From a virus (taxonomy: Duplodnaviria; Caudoviricetes): 26,018 nucleotides of DNA. Within the stretch, counting starts at the first letter, position 1, and each line of letters begins with the position of its first letter. Below the pieces are notes generated by a model. The model was not told where the DNA came from. It was given only the letters and a program-made list of their open reading frames with translations, and made no database searches. Shown here piece by piece: positions 7,709-21,980 of the stretch. The stretch lies in the IMG/VR virus record IMGVR_UViG_3300021957_000258, positions 1 through 26,018 of that record; one strand, written 5' to 3'. The translations under genes and the position numbers were made by a program.

Positions 7709-8011
7709 TTAACCCTCGTCTTTTTTCCACAATCCGTCTTCTAATCGACCTGTACGACCAGATATCTCTTTGTAAGCCGCTTGCATGCACTCCTCGAGCG
7801 TTAAACCTTTTTGTTCAGCTAAAACGATCAAACAAACCGCACAATCTCCTATCCCGTCTATTAACCCTGCTTGGTCACCGTAGGCGAGTGCTTTAGCTGT
7901 TTCACCGACTTCTTCTACAAGTTTTAACATCTGTTTTTCAGGTTGTATATCTTGTCCGTAAATTAATCCACGGACTTCCGCCCAATCAGCTATATCATCA
8001 ATTACTTTCAT
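7709..8011 (-). CDS. MazG-like nucleotide pyrophosphohydrolase
   Basis: KLVEEVGE...DGIGD...LEECMQAAYKEI.GRTG. Confidence 0.85.
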   Translation of the reverse strand: MKVIDDIADWAEVRGLIYGQDIQPEKQMLKLVEEVGETAKALAYGDQAGLIDGIGDCAVCLIVLAEQKGLTLEECMQAAYKEISGRTGRLEDGLWKKDEG

Positions 8012-13263: not shown

Positions 13264-13608
13264 CTAGCCCGACCAGTCCCAACCAGTATGTGGAGCGGCT
13301 TTTTGGTTATTAGCAATAAGTTTGATGTCCCTTTCTTTTAACCAGTCATCGAAAGCACGTTTAGTCTGATCGAGGTCATCGTACATATTTTTAAATTCAG
13401 ACCATTTGTTCCGAGCAAGTTGAGTACCGTAATAGTAATCACCTTCACCGAGTTTACAACGTGTAATAATTTGCCACATACGTTGTTTCGTTAGATTGTG
13501 TTCTTTACCCATTCGTTCTAGAGTAGTAGAGTCAGTAGACCATTGTTCGTACATTCTTCTATACCTAATCGAGTTTTCTTTAGCTTTTTCTTGTGAGATA
13601 CCTTTCAT
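13264..13608 (-). CDS. HTH protein (sigma70 region 4-like)
   Basis: TLERMGKEHNLTKQRMWQII. Start revised to 13608, ATGA-coupled to the polymerase. Confidence 0.65.
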   Translation of the reverse strand: MKGISQEKAKENSIRYRRMYEQWSTDSTTLERMGKEHNLTKQRMWQIITRCKLGEGDYYYGTQLARNKWSEFKNMYDDLDQTKRAFDDWLKERDIKLIANNQKAAPHTGWDWSG

Positions 13609-15470
13609 TTTATTTCCTTTGTTTCGCCCCATGAACTACCGAGTTCCTTATCCACTAGTAGGGGTACTGCAAGTTCTACACAAGATTCCATTATTTCTGC
13701 AATCTTATTAGCTTGTTCAGTGTTCTCTACTGAGATGTCAACCTCATCGTGGACTTGTAGGTGAGGAACTATTCCTTCCTCCCACAGACCAAGCATAGCT
13801 AACTTTGTCATGTCAGCAGCTGATCCTTGAATCAATCGATTCAGAGCTTTATATGTATATGATCTTTTTAAATTATCACCGTATTTTTCTTGTGCTTCTT
13901 CGTAGGGTAGAGGTAGAGTACGTTCATATCTATCTTCCCATAGATTAAAACGACAACGCCTACCAGCAAACGTTCTAATATAACCACGTTCCATAGCCAC
14001 CCTTGCACACTGATCTTGTAACCCTCTTATAAAAGGAACTTTATTATGATACTGCTGAAATAAAATCTCAGCTTCCGTATCGTCTATACCTAGTTCCTTA
14101 ATAAGTTTTTCCTTACCCATTCCGTAGCTAAGTCCTAGGTTAATGGTCTTAGCTTGTTTACGCGGTATTTTAGCCATATCTGCAACGATCTGGTGGAAGT
14201 CCGCATTCTTTTCTGTATATTCGATTACCGCATCTTTAGCCCCTGCTAAGTTCATACGATTAGCGTAATGAACTGTAAGTCTAGGTTCTTGTTGTGAATA
14301 ATCAAACACACCCCACTGACAACCGTCCTCTGGAATAAACAAAGATCGTATTAAATTACCGATCTCTGGATCTCTCGCAGGAACTTGTTGTAGATTAGGA
14401 TTGCTATAACTAAATCGACCACTAACTGTACCTCCGCGATCGTTACGCATAGCGTGGGCTTCAGCGTGTATACGACCATTGAAACAGTGATCTTTAATCA
14501 TCTTATCGATAAAAGTAGTTCTAGCTTTATTAAGTTTCCTTGCTCGAACAATAAGTTGTGGTAACTCGTGCTCGTGTCCTTCTAACCAGTCTTTTTGAAA
14601 ACTAGCCATACCTTTTGCAGTTCTAGGAAACCATATCTTGTTCTTTTCAAAGATAGCTTGTAACGATGCATTAGCCCATAAATTAACTTCTGCACCATAT
14701 TTACGTTTAATCTCAACCTGTAGCTTTTGTTCTTCGATCGATAACTTTTTACTAACATCGTCAGCTTTTTGTTCATCGATTCTAACACCCCGCCATCGCA
14801 TTTCTAACAATAGAGGAATCAGTCGACACTCCATGTCGAGTATCTTTTCTAACCCTTGCTCTTGAATTTCGATCTTTAATTTTTGCCAAAGTTTTAGAGT
14901 TAGTGCTGCATCTTGCTCACCATAAGGTCCAACGAACTTAGACGGTAACTTATACATTTCTGATTTAGGATTTACCCCAAACGATAAAGCAGCGTTTTGT
15001 AATAACGATTCATCTTTCTTTTCGTTACAGTAAAACTCACCGAGGTTATCTAAAGAATAAGAATACCTATTCTCGTTTACTAGGGGAGCCGCTACGATCG
15101 TATCTAATATTTTACCGCCTACGTGTACGCCTTCTCTACGGAGCCACCCTACGTCGTATAAGGCGTTATGAAATATAACGTCTCGCTTTTCCGATGCTAG
15201 AGTGTTGCGTAACCAACGTAATACAATATCTTCGTCAAGATTACCTCCGCCTTGATGACGGATCGGAAAGTAACCTTTCCAACCCTCTGTCGCAATACCA
15301 ACACCCACGATATACCCACGACCTGTTGCCCATCCTGGACCACAAGTCATAAGATGTGGATCGTAAGTTTCTAAATCTACTGCTATCGTCTCTGTTTCAG
15401 AAAACTGAGGAAAGACTTCAGGTATAGACCAGTCACTCGTTGGAGCGAACATAGGGGTTTGTAAAATCAC
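13605..15470 (-). CDS. polA: family A DNA polymerase with 3'-5' exonuclease
   Basis: Exonuclease motifs DLET, FHNALYD and YGEQD. Polymerase motifs GRFSYSNPNLQQVP, DYSQQEPR, RKQAKTINLGLSYG, IQGSAAD and QVHDE. GTG start. Confidence 0.97.
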   Translation of the reverse strand: MILQTPMFAPTSDWSIPEVFPQFSETETIAVDLETYDPHLMTCGPGWATGRGYIVGVGIATEGWKGYFPIRHQGGGNLDEDIVLRWLRNTLASEKRDVIFHNALYDVGWLRREGVHVGGKILDTIVAAPLVNENRYSYSLDNLGEFYCNEKKDESLLQNAALSFGVNPKSEMYKLPSKFVGPYGEQDAALTLKLWQKLKIEIQEQGLEKILDMECRLIPLLLEMRWRGVRIDEQKADDVSKKLSIEEQKLQVEIKRKYGAEVNLWANASLQAIFEKNKIWFPRTAKGMASFQKDWLEGHEHELPQLIVRARKLNKARTTFIDKMIKDHCFNGRIHAEAHAMRNDRGGTVSGRFSYSNPNLQQVPARDPEIGNLIRSLFIPEDGCQWGVFDYSQQEPRLTVHYANRMNLAGAKDAVIEYTEKNADFHQIVADMAKIPRKQAKTINLGLSYGMGKEKLIKELGIDDTEAEILFQQYHNKVPFIRGLQDQCARVAMERGYIRTFAGRRCRFNLWEDRYERTLPLPYEEAQEKYGDNLKRSYTYKALNRLIQGSAADMTKLAMLGLWEEGIVPHLQVHDEVDISVENTEQANKIAEIMESCVELAVPLLVDKELGSSWGETKEIK

Positions 15471-15787
15471 TTTTTCTTTTTAATACTCGTGACTTTAGTT
15501 TTCTTTGCCGCAGGTTTTTTACTCGTCTTCCTCTTAGGAGCTTTGCCACCTACCCAAGCTTCGTTAATATCTGCAGTAGACTTATCATCTGCTTTATAAC
15601 GACCTTTAGTACCACGTGCTCTTTTAGGTTCTTTAGCTACAACTTTATCGAATTTCTTTAAAGAAACTTCAGCTTCTTTAATCGCTTTTTCAAGAATATC
15701 TTCTTTAATAACGGTTTTCAATTCTTCTTTTGGTAAAGGTGTAAAAAATTTAACAAACTTTTTCCACCAACTATCTGTATTACTCAT
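15467..15787 (-). CDS. Lys-rich hypothetical protein
   Basis: RARGTKGRYKADDKSTADINEAW motif and a basic tail. Coupled on both sides. Confidence 0.7.
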   Translation of the reverse strand: MSNTDSWWKKFVKFFTPLPKEELKTVIKEDILEKAIKEAEVSLKKFDKVVAKEPKRARGTKGRYKADDKSTADINEAWVGGKAPKRKTSKKPAAKKTKVTSIKKKK

Positions 15788-16134
15788 TAGTAATCCTCCT
15801 TGCCATCTTCTGCGGCATAATTAACATCGTCAGCTTCAACGCTAACTTGGTTAGTATTAGCTAAAATGTATTCTTCAACTAATAATAAATATCTACGTAA
15901 GTCTCGAATATCATCGAGTAAACCTGCTTCGCCTTTATAGACTTCACCTGCTTCGAAGATATCCCACCCGTGCTTTTCAGACTGGTGTTCTATACGATCG
16001 AACTTACGTGCTAACATCATAAAGGCACCAACACCCCCACGACGTCTCCAAGAATCACCGTACGAAGTCTCTGCTCGTTTAAGAGCTTCAAGATCGTTTT
16101 GGGCAACTTCTTTCATATTTTCCCATTTGCTCAT
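15787..16134 (-). CDS. DUF1599/Nmad1-like all-alpha nucleotide pyrophosphatase-like protein
   Basis: Start revised to 16134. YGDSWRRRG..G..M.LARKFDR...DDIRDLRRYLLL, directly downstream of the hydroxymethylase. Confidence 0.65.
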   Translation of the reverse strand: MSKWENMKEVAQNDLEALKRAETSYGDSWRRRGGVGAFMMLARKFDRIEHQSEKHGWDIFEAGEVYKGEAGLLDDIRDLRRYLLLVEEYILANTNQVSVEADDVNYAAEDGKEDY

Positions 16135-17222
16135 TTGCTTTCTCCTATATCCGCATTGTTTAAAGTATAGGCGGTGTCTCGTTTGCGGATCCACTCAAAA
16201 CACGCCTCCATCCAATCGAGAGCCTTAATAGACTGTACTTCTCGATACGAATTCAAATAATCTCTTTGTTTGTGGTAGTAAAATGCTTTTACCATAGGTA
16301 TTGCTACGTCTGGGAAAATATTATTTTTCCATTTAATGTCGTCTGTCCTACCAATAATTTGTATTGAATCGTACCTAAAAGAATCGAAGTAATCGAAAAA
16401 GAATCTTACTTCTCTATTAAAAGAATCAAGATCGTTAACAATAGGTACAGGTTCATATTCATCGATAAGATCATAATGATTCTTTATCTGTTTATAAATG
16501 TAGACATCTAATTCTATATCTTTAACTTTTTCCCATACAGGTGTGTTGGGGTAAATATGAAAACTATCGCTAATTTGAATATAGTCTCCCATCGGTAAAT
16601 TTAGATTAAGAGCTACGAACTCTTGTAACATAGACATATGAACTACGTTCGCACCGTAAGCTCCCCAAAGCATATCGTTAGATCGATTACAAACAGTCAT
16701 ACATAATTTACCGTCTCTGATTTTGAAATAAATATTCGTATTACAAGGTACATCTTTCCTTTCTATTTCTTTATTACAAGTTCTTGCTAAATCTCCTTTT
16801 GGATCCCACATCTGTAAAACTGCTCGTCTTTCGTTAGGATTATCTTTTAATAACCCAATAATTGCAGCTATTTGATCTTTCTTAAAATAACTTCTCCATC
16901 GCCAACCATAAGCCCCCCACAAAGTTTCACCGTCGTCTGAGAAGTCTTCCATAGACTTAACAAAATAAGTTAATGGTTCTAAGTCGTTACGACCATCGAG
17001 CATCCATAGCCCTTCTATAAAATGAAAAAATGGATTAGCGTCTCTTTGCTTTATTAAACAAACTCTTTCCCATGGCTTTTCATACACAGTAGTTACAGGT
17101 GTATTAGCTTCATAAGTTAAACCATTACGACTTTCTTGTATCCTGTATTCCGTAGGGTCTTGAAATAAATCGATACCTCTTTCTAACGCATCGTTTACGT
17201 TTCTTGCTTTAATTACTTTCAT
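16131..17222 (-). CDS. thymidylate synthase-fold enzyme, probable dUMP hydroxymethylase
   Basis: FSDDG..LWGAYGWR, RRAVLQMWD, catalytic DVPCN, NRSNDMLWGAYGAN (Asn at the dUMP-specificity position) and SFHIY. The RSND and GAYG motifs are hydroxymethylase-like rather than ThyA-like. Confidence 0.85.
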   Translation of the reverse strand: MKVIKARNVNDALERGIDLFQDPTEYRIQESRNGLTYEANTPVTTVYEKPWERVCLIKQRDANPFFHFIEGLWMLDGRNDLEPLTYFVKSMEDFSDDGETLWGAYGWRWRSYFKKDQIAAIIGLLKDNPNERRAVLQMWDPKGDLARTCNKEIERKDVPCNTNIYFKIRDGKLCMTVCNRSNDMLWGAYGANVVHMSMLQEFVALNLNLPMGDYIQISDSFHIYPNTPVWEKVKDIELDVYIYKQIKNHYDLIDEYEPVPIVNDLDSFNREVRFFFDYFDSFRYDSIQIIGRTDDIKWKNNIFPDVAIPMVKAFYYHKQRDYLNSYREVQSIKALDWMEACFEWIRKRDTAYTLNNADIGESK

Positions 17223-17440
17223 AGCCCGTCTTGATAGCCCCCAACTATTTCATGTATCACAAAACGAATTTCTTCATCGTTTAACATAGGTACTTTTCTT
17301 TTTATAAAAGATATTGCAAGTCGCTCATCTGCGGCTACTTTTAAAAAGAATGCAACTTCTAAAAACTGTGTGTAATGTATATCGATTACATCACCATACT
17401 CTTCTAACAACTCTATTGCTCTATCACTCATACTGCCCAT
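17219..17440 (-). CDS. hypothetical protein
   Basis: 70-73 aa, overlaps both neighbours. The start could be 17431. Confidence 0.65.
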   Translation of the reverse strand: MGSMSDRAIELLEEYGDVIDIHYTQFLEVAFFLKVAADERLAISFIKRKVPMLNDEEIRFVIHEIVGGYQDGL

Positions 17441-18359
17441 ACTTACTTTCTCCTTCTATTAAGTCTTCCACCATTGGAAGATTATTATGTTTATACACCG
17501 ATCGTGTTCTTCCCTCGCTTTTATATATTCGAGAGTATTTATCAAACTCACACAGCCCACCTTCGATCTCTCGCATTTCGTAATTAGCACCATTTCTAAA
17601 GATGATTGAAGGAGCTAATATTTTCTTTACCTGTTCAAATAGATCTTGCATTTCTTCACACCATGGATGGCTTTTACGACTATAATCTAATGGTCTGCCT
17701 GTAAGACGATTAAGTCCTCGCATAGCTCCTGGACCTGCATTAGCCCATGTTAAAATATCTTTAGCATTCTCTAATAGATAAGTGTGTCTTAAATCAGTAA
17801 CAACCTCGTATGCCATAAATGGACCCATGTATGGATAATCTCTAAGAATTAACCACGTTGCTTCTAAAGAAGATTCATCCTTCACTAAATTCTCATGTAA
17901 TCTAGATAGAATAGATTCTTTAGCTTTCCAAATATGTGAAACACATTCAGCCACTCCTGTTACTTTATCCATACCGTTTGGTGTTTTAATAATGTAAGCA
18001 CCCGTGATCCACTTAGGTTGTTTAGTTATTTCACAAATAGCTTTCTTTCTATTCCACTTACGTAATAAATCATGATCGATTAAAGTTCTCCCTGTTTCTA
18101 TTAAATTAAACCAACGGAATATAATCGTAGCCATAAGAACGTCTTCTTCGTTCCGCATAGGTTCTCTTATATGTGTTCTAAACCAACGTGTTGTACGATC
18201 ATCTTCTCTAAACACTTGGCAGAACTTGAACTCCTGCAAAATTGGATCGTCAGTCCAGGGAGGGGAAAGAACTGCAGATTCTTTTTTAATGCGTATCGAC
18301 TCACGTTCAGTTTGCCAATAGCAATAACGATCCAACTCTGCGGGAATAAACTCGGTCAT
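17424..18359 (-). CDS. aGPT-Pplase1 / HMUDK_hel-type DNA base hypermodification protein
   Basis: PPWTDDPIL..F..V.REDD, FRWFN, GAYII, GPFMAYEVVTDL, GPGAMRGL and EGGLCEFDKY. Located next to the hydroxymethylase. Confidence 0.8.
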   Translation of the reverse strand: MTEFIPAELDRYCYWQTERESIRIKKESAVLSPPWTDDPILQEFKFCQVFREDDRTTRWFRTHIREPMRNEEDVLMATIIFRWFNLIETGRTLIDHDLLRKWNRKKAICEITKQPKWITGAYIIKTPNGMDKVTGVAECVSHIWKAKESILSRLHENLVKDESSLEATWLILRDYPYMGPFMAYEVVTDLRHTYLLENAKDILTWANAGPGAMRGLNRLTGRPLDYSRKSHPWCEEMQDLFEQVKKILAPSIIFRNGANYEMREIEGGLCEFDKYSRIYKSEGRTRSVYKHNNLPMVEDLIEGESKYGQYE

Positions 18360-19201
18360 TACTTTTTACGTAACACCCAAGAACAGTTATTAGCGACTTC
18401 AGGATAAAACGTAGCGGCAACAACTCGTAAAAACTGTCTACCGTATCTGTTTTGTAGTTTCTGAAACTGCTCAGGCGTCCATCCTGTTTCAGAATCTTCT
18501 TTCATCGCTTTCTTTAAATTAGGTAATTGTATAAACGTTCCTGTAACGTCTACTATCTCGAAGTTTCTTTCTAATTCTTCTTTTAGTTCTTGAAAACCCC
18601 ACTCGTATACGTGATCCTCGGGAAGCTTGTCGTTAGAACCGTCGTGGTTAGGTGTGGATACGAAAGCTAAACCATTTGGTCTTATAGCTCTAGCTGCATC
18701 ATCTAACCATGCAGAAATAAACTCTCTACCCATATGTTCAATAACTTCTGTCGTCCAGAAAAAATCTATACTTTCATTTTCTAGTTTAAATACAGGATCA
18801 ACAGTTAAGTCTTGTATACGTATTTCACCATTGAAATTTTGAAACCATGTAGATTTAGATAACTCACCCCCTGCATTAGACCAAAAAGGATTTTCTAATT
18901 CACAAGCAGGATCAATATCGTAACCGTAATAAGAGCTGATAATATCTGATTTCTTTACAACATAAGCTTTGTATAAATTACGTAAAGCCCAACACTCACC
19001 ACAACCTACTTCAAACGTATCAAGTGGTCGACCTAATCGTTTAGCTTCAGCTATACACATTGAGGAGATTTTATCGAACCGACTCATATGAGCAAGTTCA
19101 TCAGGTCTCCAGTTTCCTAACACTCCCGCAGAAGCAAGATCCATTCTAGTATTTTTACTGTCGTTTTCATTAACAGTTAGTTTCTTTCGTATTGATGACA
19201 T
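18359..19201 (-). CDS. class I SAM-dependent methyltransferase
   Basis: Motif I FEVGCG, GYDID, IQDL, EVIEHM and RPNGLAFVSTPN. No DPPY/NPPY or PCQ motif. Confidence 0.85.
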   Translation of the reverse strand: MSSIRKKLTVNENDSKNTRMDLASAGVLGNWRPDELAHMSRFDKISSMCIAEAKRLGRPLDTFEVGCGECWALRNLYKAYVVKKSDIISSYYGYDIDPACELENPFWSNAGGELSKSTWFQNFNGEIRIQDLTVDPVFKLENESIDFFWTTEVIEHMGREFISAWLDDAARAIRPNGLAFVSTPNHDGSNDKLPEDHVYEWGFQELKEELERNFEIVDVTGTFIQLPNLKKAMKEDSETGWTPEQFQKLQNRYGRQFLRVVAATFYPEVANNCSWVLRKK

Positions 19202-19205
19202 TTTA

Positions 19206-19688
19206 TTACCTCCACCAACTTGGTTTAGTTCTACCCTTTTCCCACTTAGCGTAATGTTTCTCGTTAATAACGTAATTACGATAAGCTAGAACAGAGTCCT
19301 CGTTTTTATATTCATCAGGCATGGCTTGAGCAACTGGTGTCATAAGCCTTCGTGTAATGTTTTTAGGCATTACGTATAAGGCGTCTGAGAGTTTCTCTAG
19401 ACTTGCGTGAGTCCGTTGGTAACGGTATGTATACTCATTACCTAACGCTATAAAATGTTTATAAAGCCAATAATAGTTACCACTGCATTCTCTAGCCCAG
19501 ATCGTACAAGGGTGGTTCATATAAGCTTTCTTATATAAACCTACGCTATCTGCATATTCGTCTCCGTCTAATAGACGGTGGGCTGTACAGAGCATCTGTG
19601 CGGTTTCTAATGGCATCTTCACTAGCATTTTATCTGGTTGCGACTTAGCCGCAATCACAGGATCTTCGTTAAAATAAAATATGTTCAT
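19206..19688 (-). CDS. pyrimidine-dimer DNA glycosylase (DenV)-like protein
   Basis: MNIF...DK..VKMPLETAQML...NHPCTIW...EYTYRY..H...AMPDEYK. Confidence 0.7.
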   Translation of the reverse strand: MNIFYFNEDPVIAAKSQPDKMLVKMPLETAQMLCTAHRLLDGDEYADSVGLYKKAYMNHPCTIWARECSGNYYWLYKHFIALGNEYTYRYQRTHASLEKLSDALYVMPKNITRRLMTPVAQAMPDEYKNEDSVLAYRNYVINEKHYAKWEKGRTKPSWWR

Positions 19689-19724: not shown

Positions 19725-19758
19725 TTTATACTTTACTTTTATGTGCAAAGTAAAGCAC
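19725..19758 (-). promoter_or_regulatory. recurrent phage promoter for the modification/polymerase operon
   Basis: GTGC-TTTACT-N18-TATAAA, containing the inverted repeat ctttacttt/aaagtaaag. Confidence 0.65.
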
Positions 19759-21257: not shown

Positions 21258-21405
21258 CTTTTAAATTTTCAAAGCTGTGATACACATCGATATGAGAGTT
21301 ACATCCTGGACAACTTAGATTAGTCACTATGTCGTATTCCTCATCGTCTTCTAAGTCATGGTCGCCACCCCATATTAAGGGAGTTTTACAGTGCCAACAA
21401 TTCAT
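21244..21405 (-). CDS. small zinc-ribbon protein (53 aa, not in ORF track)
   Basis: MNCWHC...IWGGDHD...NLSCPGC. AGGAG RBS and ATGA overlap. Confidence 0.75.
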   Translation of the reverse strand: MNCWHCKTPLIWGGDHDLEDDEEYDIVTNLSCPGCNSHIDVYHSFENLKDDLT

Positions 21406-21980
21406 AGCCCACTCCTAAACGTTAAGTTGACTCTTTCTTCTGCTCCTACTAAATCAGGAACAGCGTGAGTAGCTTTCATCTGTGAATATCCATCGAACAT
21501 AATTACATCACCGTGATCAAGAAGATATAACTTTTCATCTTTTATGAAATTTTCTTTTAAATCTACATCACTAGTATTGGTGTGTTGTTTTATATTATTT
21601 TGATAAGTTCTCCAAGCAAAAACACGAGGAGCACCAAAACTTAAAGAAACGACTATATCATCAAGAGCGGGTACAGTATCACTGTGGTGTGGTATACCTT
21701 TATCATCAGGATAAAAACCACATAAACAAAAAGTAAATTTTATTTCTTTATTAAAAACTCTAGAAGCTACATCTTCTGCCGCAACTTTGATTAACTGCAT
21801 TTTATTAGTCCATGGTTCAGGCTCGTATAACTTCCCTGCATAATTAAAAGTTGAGTCACCAAACCCACGAGTCGGTCGACCTTTAACCATCGTACCTTCA
21901 AACATACGTTCACGAGGTTTATCCCATTTATCTATCCCGTGTTCGAACTCTGAAAATATATGTTTAATATGTTTAATCAT
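21402..21980 (-). CDS. AlkB-family 2OG-Fe(II) dioxygenase
   Basis: HSD...SLSFGAPRVF...HAVP...RVNLTFR (HxD...H...RxxxxxR). Confidence 0.85.
   Translation of the reverse strand: MIKHIKHIFSEFEHGIDKWDKPRERMFEGTMVKGRPTRGFGDSTFNYAGKLYEPEPWTNKMQLIKVAAEDVASRVFNKEIKFTFCLCGFYPDDKGIPHHSDTVPALDDIVVSLSFGAPRVFAWRTYQNNIKQHTNTSDVDLKENFIKDEKLYLLDHGDVIMFDGYSQMKATHAVPDLVGAEERVNLTFRSGL

Follow-up and report, generated by a model that had tools for sequence, protein, structure and literature searches.

The known pathways of thymidine hypermodification pass through a phosphorylated intermediate, whereas the pathway encoded in the DNA analyzed here appears not to; its starting base is 5-hydroxymethyl-2'-deoxyuridine (hmdU). 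The window (the whole stretch of 26,018 nucleotides, positions 1 to 26,018 of IMG/VR record IMGVR_UViG_3300021957_000258) represents a 26-kb piece of the genome of a tailed phage. It carries a cassette with a thymidylate synthase (TS)-fold enzyme, an aGPT-Pplase1 protein and a class I S-adenosylmethionine (SAM) methyltransferase, for which an initial annotation had proposed a methylated hmdU derivative. Our results indicate that the cassette is real and conserved, a variant of hmdU hypermodification that appears to do without a kinase, and that the chemical prediction is credible and specific. The chances appear about even that hmdU is O-methylated without a kinase to 5-methoxymethyl-2'-deoxyuridine (5-methoxymethyl-dU), a base that we infer to be new. 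The three central genes are:

18359..19201, minus strand: class I SAM methyltransferase (PF13489, E 3.3e-8)
17424..18359, minus strand: aGPT-Pplase1 (PF18723, E 3.9e-41)
16131..17222, minus strand: thymidylate-synthase-fold enzyme (PF00303, E 3.3e-20)

The full-length identity of the TS-fold enzyme was 41% to PaMx11 gp51, 45% to phiJL001 gp24 and 41% to the M6 enzyme. According to the available text of PMC13326640, ThyA position 177 is Asn in enzymes acting on deoxyuridine monophosphate (dUMP) and Asp in those acting on deoxycytidine monophosphate (dCMP), an acidic residue at 143 marks hydroxymethylases and D169N marks hydroxylases. The window enzyme carries D157 (ThyA L143D), C160, D183 (D169) and N192 (N177); since D157, D183 and N192 occupy the diagnostic positions, it is predicted to make 5-hydroxymethyl-dUMP (hmdUMP). 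With D183 and N192, the window enzyme lacks the residues of the 5-hydroxy-dCMP synthase type of RB69 and DLP3 (D169N, N177D). Production of thymidylate (dTMP) or 5-hydroxy-dUMP instead, with T or 5-methoxy-dU as the base, would agree with this enzyme being the sole TS in the 97%-complete relative G001 and with an operon that holds no clear gene for removing thymidine triphosphate (dTTP). We regard it as very unlikely, given that D157 marks hydroxymethylases, that D183 is kept where hydroxylases have Asn (same source), and that the enzyme shares 41% full-length identity with those of M6 and PaMx11 and reaches the cut-off of none of the ThyA equivalog models that it matched.

Searching 1.8 billion representatives for the methyltransferase family yielded 294 proteins with E-values of at most 0.001, gene context covering a minority of the deep branches, and the ESM Atlas clusters near the window protein were 95-100% viral. 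The family profile matched seven Hen1 sequences in the PDB (E 3e-9 to 2e-7). Six of these matches extend to profile positions 189-195, the UbiG alignments ending at 171, and the alignment with 4XRP spans both metal motifs, E-x-x-E-H and TPN...D-H-x-x-E-W. In plant HEN1 the Mg ligands are E796, E799, H800 and H860, with D859 beside the last, as given in the accessible part of PMC10781085. When the window protein was aligned with 32 full-length homologs, E152, E155, H156 and H197 fell on the Hen1 metal tetrad and were kept in 32, 33, 33 and 33 of the 33 sequences, and D196 was kept in 29 of 29 closer homologs. As read from this alignment, the site points to O-methylation of a hydroxyl, and we propose that the protein is a metal-assisted O-methyltransferase for an aliphatic hydroxyl. 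No C5, N4 or N6 DNA-methyltransferase family was matched in Pfam, PHROGs or NCBIfam, and none occurred among the 60 PDB matches listed. The link to Hen1 needs a broad profile, since the profile of close homologs (A7) matched one PDB sequence and the AXL3 protein alone two, no Hen1 among them. The bacterial Hen1 model TIGR04074 gave no match to the window protein and 18.7-28 bits for its homologs, against a cut-off of 340. The structural model (predicted local distance difference test, pLDDT, 91.5) retrieved class I enzymes of all kinds, no family standing out, with CmoM as the best match (Z 16.6-16.8). The initial annotation had called the enzyme small-molecule-type, which fits a fold that ties with many class I enzymes but not the active-site motif, which is that of a nucleic-acid O-methyltransferase.

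The conservation of the cassette was determined next to the methyltransferase in other viruses. With this protein as query, 80 IMG/VR loci of 64-99% identity were obtained, and the order methyltransferase, aGPT-Pplase1, TS, PolA was kept wherever the flank was long enough. The pooled loci (L007-L363 minus the genome stretches L087-L097) held 171 distinct methyltransferases, 152 of them with at least 3 kb downstream. A TS fold lay within 3.5 kb of 150 of the 152, and all 150 have Asp at the ThyA-143 position and keep Asp169. The TS neighbor was of the Asn (dU) type, with aGPT-Pplase1, in 126 cases and of the Asp (dC) type, without aGPT-Pplase1, in 24. In every one of the 126 Asn-type loci aGPT-Pplase1 adjoins the hydroxymethylase and the dUMP-hydroxymethylase signature is present (125 by script, L270 by eye). 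In the reverse test, among the best 80 of 352 matches, the methyltransferase was found in 72 of 72 aGPT-Pplase1 loci with at least 1.2 kb upstream. The synteny that the initial annotation had proposed to look for is thus conserved. A marine origin of the clade is suggested by contig names (TARA and similar) and by source labels, and a search for nanopore runs containing this DNA listed no such run. No cultured phage with the dU-type cassette was recovered, the methyltransferase matching 5 of 50,697 phage records, all at 25-29%. In L270, which has a different backbone, the methyltransferase (55%) is accompanied by aGPT-Pplase1, dU hydroxymethylase, HD and DUF3310 genes in the order of PaMx11, and it fills the slot of the transferase, flavin adenine dinucleotide (FAD) lyase, acetyltransferase and kinase. 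This conserved context supports the earlier suggestion that a methyltransferase takes the place of the kinase, transferase and tailoring enzymes in an hmdU cassette.

The 24 dC-type loci include the clade of the cultured phage AXL3, with genes for methyltransferase, nucleoside triphosphate (NTP) pyrophosphatase, kinase, TS and dCMP deaminase. Of the 37 enzymes applied to AXL3 DNA, 2 were able to cut it, both of which recognize A/T-only sites, and the modification of this DNA is given as unknown in the part of PMC7504290 available. The cutting pattern agrees with modified C. In the AXL3 locus (L001:7851-11885, gp31-gp27) the annotated 'thymidylate synthase' carries the dCMP-hydroxymethylase signature, which would explain the resistance to enzymes with G/C sites, and the PW916 'deoxyuridylate hydroxymethyltransferase' is likewise of the Asp type. 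Downstream of an AXL3-type methyltransferase, L272:9134-10126 encodes a P-loop kinase that weakly matches a UDG family close to the C-terminus. Since one methyltransferase family lies beside both dU and dC hydroxymethylases, the simplest common substrate of the two cassette types is the 5-hydroxymethyl group.

These observations suggest the following route. The TS-fold enzyme, as its signature implies, would convert dUMP to hmdUMP, host kinases would form the triphosphate, and PolA would insert hmdU in place of T, by extension from M6 and PaMx11. The methyltransferase would bind Mg or Mn through E152, E155, H156 and H197, the metal lowering the pKa of the 5-CH2OH group, perhaps by chelation with O4, and methyl transfer from SAM would give 5-methoxymethyl-dU (hmdU + 14 Da), so that a phosphorylation step would be unnecessary. 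aGPT-Pplase1 would be an accessory protein for hmdU-DNA binding, base flipping or repair and not the activating enzyme. The modification would likely shield the DNA from restriction and from nucleases or glycosylases that recognize a free hydroxymethyl group. In AXL3-like phages the same family would make 5-methoxymethyl-dC. Of the products listed in the initial annotation, the O-methyl ether is favored both by the metal site of Hen1 type and by the occurrence of dU as well as dC hydroxymethylases beside one methyltransferase family; an N-methylated substituent fits a Hen1-type site less well, and no transferase is present to supply the amine. Methylation of replicated DNA is somewhat more likely than methylation of the nucleotide: the L270 slot, a ParB-terminase context in L449 and the polymeric substrate of Hen1 favor the former, and the block of pool enzymes in AXL3 and the acidic window protein favor the latter. 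The wider statement, that a Hen1-type metal-dependent family O-methylates hydroxymethylpyrimidines in DNA to 5-methoxymethyl-dU in the marine clade and 5-methoxymethyl-dC in AXL3-like phages, with aGPT-Pplase1 participating in the marine clade, we hold tentatively, at a little short of an even chance.

As the initial annotation had stated, no aGPT-Pplase2 transferase, P-loop kinase, pyridoxal phosphate (PLP) or radical-SAM enzyme was found among the 30 window open reading frames (ORFs) scanned, and its proposal to search the rest of the genome for kinase or transferase genes likewise led to no match in near-complete relatives. The amino acid:DNA transferase family PF18724 (aGPT-Pplase2) was matched in 0 of 7 relatives that are 97-100% complete (PaMx11 control, E 3.3e-29) and the TAGT glycosyltransferase PF20691 in 0 of 4 near-complete relatives (phiJL001 control, E 4.2e-55). 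The 5-hmdU kinase PF18748 was matched in 0 of 3 near-complete relatives and not in the 78%-complete L270, the PaMx11 control being weak (E 9.4e-5). In G001, G003 and G004, phmmer searches gave nothing under E 0.6 with PaMx11 gp49 and nothing under E 0.05 with gp49 plus other pathway genes, and the kinase of L125 as query matched 0 of 5 in a search with no positive control. When 119 proteins were scanned with Pfam, roughly 100 of them from a selection of the ORFs of at least 90 aa in G001, G003 and G004, the proteins of these three genomes showed no PLP, radical-SAM or kinase family; they did include a small MazG, in both G001 and G003, and a dUTPase, in G004. PaMx11 gp49, a proven 5-hmdU kinase (L006:7393-7962), is annotated 'terminase small subunit' in NC_028770.

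The protein left to consider as an activating enzyme is aGPT-Pplase1, which is 42.5% identical to PaMx11 gp50. Its family PF18723 bears the Pfam title '5-hmdU DNA kinase, helical domain'. Table 3 of PMC5889632 gives SP10 gp186 as a kinase (N-terminal) fused to aG/PT-PPlase1 (C-terminal). The accessible text of PMC8989533 describes the 5-hmdU kinases as P-loop proteins and reports activity for the isolated kinase domain of SP10; for the kinase/transferase reaction of M6, gp54 and gp51 are sufficient and gp55 is dispensable. The model of the window protein was all-helical (pLDDT 89.6) and matched proteins of the helix-hairpin-helix (HhH) glycosylase fold, including a queuine salvage enzyme (Z 10.6), an archaeal-type OGG (10.1) and PaMx11 gp46 (10.1); Foldseek gave no match under E 0.001 and a sequence search of the PDB gave nothing useful. 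PF18723 as the 5-hmdU kinase was rejected, the activity residing in the P-loop protein and the model having the HhH fold, and aGPT-Pplase1 is not the 5-hmdU kinase. In a phosphate route, aGPT-Pplase1 or an unseen kinase would phosphorylate hmdU and a methyl ester (+94 Da) would then be formed on the phosphate by the methyltransferase, in line with the Pfam title and with distant homologs (L125, L206, L444 and L445) that adjoin real kinases. The all-helical fold, the activity of SP10 gp186 without its C-terminal part (as far as PMC8989533 and PMC5889632 describe it) and the lack of a kinase match in complete relatives make this route highly improbable. The methyl-phosphate ester and the +80/+94 Da shifts of the initial annotation need a kinase, and they are not supported.

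A different activity of aGPT-Pplase1 deserves more weight. As a transferase acting through C270 it might add a polyol, sugar or amine without a phage kinase, the methyltransferase then methylating a hydroxyl of the substituent to give a larger new base. All 29 homologs compared keep E266-x3-C270, which corresponds to E243/C247 of PaMx11 gp46 (as presented in the part of PMC11472151 available), so that, judging from the motif, aGPT-Pplase1 may have a catalytic role. The fold match to gp46 (Z 10.1) and the strict linkage to the methyltransferase (72 of 72) agree with a transferase, and so does L445, which unites methyltransferase, inositol-1-phosphate synthase, transferase and kinase, a cyclitol offering the vicinal diols bound by the Hen1 site. 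On the other hand, known transferases require a phosphate leaving group, the E-x3-C motif is also kept in PaMx11 gp50 and phiJL001 gp19, and M6 gp55 was dispensable in the reaction tested (PMC8989533, in the text at hand). Moreover, in none of the 24 dC-type cassettes is the methyltransferase accompanied by aGPT-Pplase1, and no substituent-making gene recurs in the cassette. We consider such a transferase unlikely. A complex prediction for aGPT-Pplase1 and the methyltransferase scored 0.00, which weighs neither way.

Among the distant methyltransferase homologs, L125 and L206 are inside the set of 152 and L444, L445, L446 and L449 outside it. L125:6480-10154 (G008, complete, 49 kb) and L206:11-2566 hold genes for an amino acid:DNA transferase, a 5-hmdU-kinase-family protein, the methyltransferase and an Asp-type TS, the only TS of the genome in L125, and a kinase/transferase pathway acting on cytosine, not thymine, is possible there. 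L444:2666-7894 holds aGPT-Pplase1, an Asn-type hydroxymethylase, methyltransferase, dual-specificity phosphatase and 5-hmdU kinase. The phosphatase-kinase pairing recurs in L445:3944-9878, with aGPT-Pplase1, myo-inositol-1-phosphate synthase, methyltransferase, amino acid:DNA transferase, dual-specificity phosphatase, 5-hmdU kinase, Nmad1 and PolA, which suggests a methyl-inositol-substituted thymidine. L449:1794-6086, a prophage-like contig of a Ructibacterium metagenome-assembled genome, holds ParB, a member of the methyltransferase family and a radical-SAM protein, followed by terminase and portal; a packaging-linked DNA modification is possible, the ParB-terminase context suggesting action on DNA. 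The methyltransferase family is tied to DNA base modification, and it may methylate a substituent in some phages. In Rhodoferax phage P26218 (L364:4555-5963) the hypothetical proteins gp14 and gp15 match the PaMx11 transferase and kinase at 29% each beside a dU hydroxymethylase, and this locus gave no aGPT-Pplase1 match. P26218, a cultured freshwater podovirus, likely has hypermodified T.

The phage DNA could also contain plain hmdU, the methyltransferase being part of the replication operon but acting elsewhere, either like Hen1 on RNA 3' ends (or DNA ends) or on a small metabolite. The metal motif does belong to Hen1, the fold ties with many small-molecule enzymes, and L446, a 54% homolog, has DnaB and primase as neighbors and no TS in the 33% of the genome that its record covers, which also counts against O-methylation of hmdU. 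However, the link to hydroxymethylases persists in homologs as distant as about 25% identity, with both base specificities and on several phage backbones, the methyltransferase gene overlaps that of aGPT-Pplase1, and no RNA ligase or Pnkp family was found among the scanned ORFs of neighbors or relatives. Plain hmdU is unlikely.

The use of short palindromes was also compared with expectation. CCGG, GCGC and GGCC are absent from the window (27, 22 and 23 expected), and the counts of CGCG and of the 12 4-base palindromes that contain T are close to those expected. The relatives G001 and G003, of 60 kb, lack the same three, and G003 also lacks GATC; these absences point to a host that exerts strong restriction pressure at 4-base sites. 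With strong avoidance set at an observed/expected ratio under 0.15 in 110 clade loci, GGCC was avoided in 67 of 107 loci, CCGG in 49 of 83, GCGC in 36 of 90, CGCG in 4 of 82, GATC in 23 of 110, GTAC in 1 of 110 and the remaining palindromes in none; 22 dC-type loci avoided almost no palindromes. The pattern fits phages with shielded T sites and unshielded G/C sites. It is not diagnostic, because GATC is an exception, the loci of the known T-modifying phages PaMx11 and phiJL001 lack G/C-site avoidance, and an unmodified control from the same host is lacking. The available part of PMC6449724 reports that phiW-14 DNA is still partly digested by GATC cutters.

Several further results weigh against O-methylation of hmdU as the answer. 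G/C palindromes are commonly restriction targets anyway, and the strong avoidance of GATC in 23 of 110 loci does not suit shielded T sites. In the profile search Hen1 ties by E-value with UbiG and phosphoethanolamine N-methyltransferases, and the fold match to HEN1 3HTX (Z 14.8-14.9, root-mean-square deviation 3.0-3.3, 185-190 residues aligned) is not the top one. The Hen1 metal binds a vicinal diol, which hmdU does not have, and the window methyltransferase is acidic (isoelectric point 5.15), its AXL3, L125 and L270 homologs being basic (8.7-9.2). A catalytic-type Glu and Cys are kept in aGPT-Pplase1 and are not accounted for by an accessory role. With a kinase control as weak as E 9.4e-5 a divergent kinase could escape, kinase and transferase genes are in view in L125, L206, L444 and L445, and dCMP deaminase was matched in 0 of 4 complete relatives by a search that detected its control. 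The 152 loci represent few lineages, 125 coming from one marine clade, and in the tree the dU- and dC-linked rows are one switch apart. The two misses among the 152, L274 and L277, are weak matches on long branches, L274 amid glycosyltransferase genes, and L449 has no TS in view.

The remaining features of the window that belong to the operon or bear on the nucleotide pool are:

19725..19758, minus strand: putative promoter heading the operon, TTTACT-N18-TATAAA (motif at 19754-19725)
19206..19688, minus strand: DenV-like pyrimidine-dimer glycosylase family protein (PF03013, E 9.5e-7)
17219..17440, minus strand: 73-aa acidic ORF, no family
15787..16134, minus strand: Nmad1/DUF1599-like protein of 115 aa (ESM Atlas cluster)
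15467..15787, minus strand: 106-aa basic ORF between the 115-aa ORF and PolA
13605..15470, minus strand: PolA, family A DNA polymerase (PF00476, E 4.4e-62)
7709..8011, minus strand: small MazG-like nucleotide pyrophosphohydrolase, outside the operon (PF03819, E 1e-5)

An ORF and sequence check of the window, together with the family matches, confirmed the tightly packed minus-strand run described in the initial annotation, with its TAATG overlap joining methyltransferase and aGPT-Pplase1 at 18359; the gap between the DenV-like and methyltransferase genes is four bases. The genes that it named are all present, and the 106-aa ORF (15787-15467) that precedes PolA, with TAATG and GTGA overlaps with its two neighbors, had been omitted. 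Its DUF1599-like ORF exists but starts at ATG 16134, in an ATGA overlap with the TS stop, and not at GTG 16194. The 115-aa protein was present in 125 of 126 cassette loci. It had no Pfam match (0 of 16 homologs), and its top ESM Atlas cluster was DUF1599 (score 0.91, 204 features shared, 56% of members PF07659); this identity is a lead, and the protein is possibly a nucleotide pyrophosphohydrolase. The MazG-like protein, with homologs in the relatives G001 and G003, is a candidate for lowering dTTP or deoxyuridine triphosphate. PolA was no more than 3.5 kb from the methyltransferase in 121 of 126 cassette loci, a homolog of the 106-aa ORF within 3.5 kb in 62 and the DenV-like protein within 3.5 kb in 52; the last is an optional passenger. 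The 73-aa ORF had no Pfam, PHROG or NCBIfam match and is variable, BLAST detecting a homolog in 50 of 126 loci.

The putative promoter of the initial annotation reads TTTACT-18 nt-TATAAA, and a generic sigma-70 scan does not list it. The motif CTTTAC-N17-19-TAT[AT] has five minus-strand copies, against a mean of 0.27 and a maximum of 3 in 200 two-base-block shuffles. In 64 of 79 relatives a looser TTTAC..TA motif is located after UvrD, and the promoter motif directly precedes the methyltransferase in relatives with no DenV at that spot. The promoter-like motif GCTTTACTT...TA(T/A) recurs at about 25257, 19754, 13255 and 2931 on the minus strand, ahead of gene blocks. Upstream of the cassette lie UvrD, an AlkB-like dioxygenase, AEP primase and genes like Pam3 gp32-34. 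The AlkB-like 2-oxoglutarate-Fe(II) dioxygenase (21402-21980, between primase and UvrD) is found in many, not all, relatives; it probably serves repair, and it could act on methylated bases. Among the relatives, the complete genome G003 has curli-secretion CsgF and CsgG, FecR-domain and CHASE2-cyclase genes among its tail genes (L092:8170-12938), and G001 and G003 have a GroES-like (Cpn10) gene in the head module (L087:9253-9750).

In full-text literature, mostly outside subscription papers, no methoxymethyl pyrimidine in phage DNA and no such cassette was found described. O-methyltransferases occur, uncharacterized, among genes near phage 5-methylpyrimidine dioxygenases in the available part of PMC13229309, and the accessible portion of PMC11946847 does not mention methyltransferases. 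The virome survey of Lee et al. used kinase queries, according to the text available from PMC8989533, and would thus have missed kinase-free cassettes. If the prediction is true, the natural DNA bases gain a member, carried by a common marine phage group, and the active site of Hen1 has moved from RNA sugars to DNA bases. It can be tested directly in the cultured phages AXL3 and PW916, which have the same enzyme family. An enzyme methylating 5-hmC/5-hmU would serve as a labelling tool with SAM analogues, and the minimal cassette is a good setting for finding the role of aGPT-Pplase1.

The window cassette resembles the M6/YuA and PaMx11 clusters (PMC5889632 and PMC8989533, in the parts available) in its dUMP hydroxymethylase (41%), with aGPT-Pplase1 directly upstream and PolA downstream. 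In contrast to these, it gave no match to P-loop kinase, amino acid:DNA transferase, PLP, radical-SAM, FAD, acetyltransferase or dCMP deaminase genes, and has a Hen1-type methyltransferase instead. The phiJL001 cluster (AY576273; gp19 aGPT-Pplase1, gp22 TAGT glycosyltransferase, gp23 Nmad5, gp24 hydroxymethylase) similarly combines aGPT-Pplase1 and a dU hydroxymethylase with a group transferase that possibly acts directly on the hydroxyl, although this is a sugar transferase and not a methyltransferase. AXL3 (Stenotrophomonas) and PW916 (Pseudoxanthomonas) have the same methyltransferase family (28%, E 4e-12), with the E..EH and H..E motifs kept, beside a TS-fold hydroxymethylase; unlike that of the window, this enzyme is of the Asp (dCMP) type, and it is accompanied by NTP pyrophosphatase, kinase and dCMP deaminase and not by aGPT-Pplase1. 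Hen1/HENMT1 (PDB 3HTX, 3JWG, 4XRP, 4XCX) share with the window methyltransferase the class I fold, the E/E/H/H tetrad and the E-x-x-E-H...TPN...D-H-x-x-E-W pattern. The window protein differs in standing alone, with 280 aa and a conserved basic N-terminal arm, in scoring far below the NCBIfam cut-off for Hen1, and in its setting, which is DNA base modification and not RNA repair or silencing.

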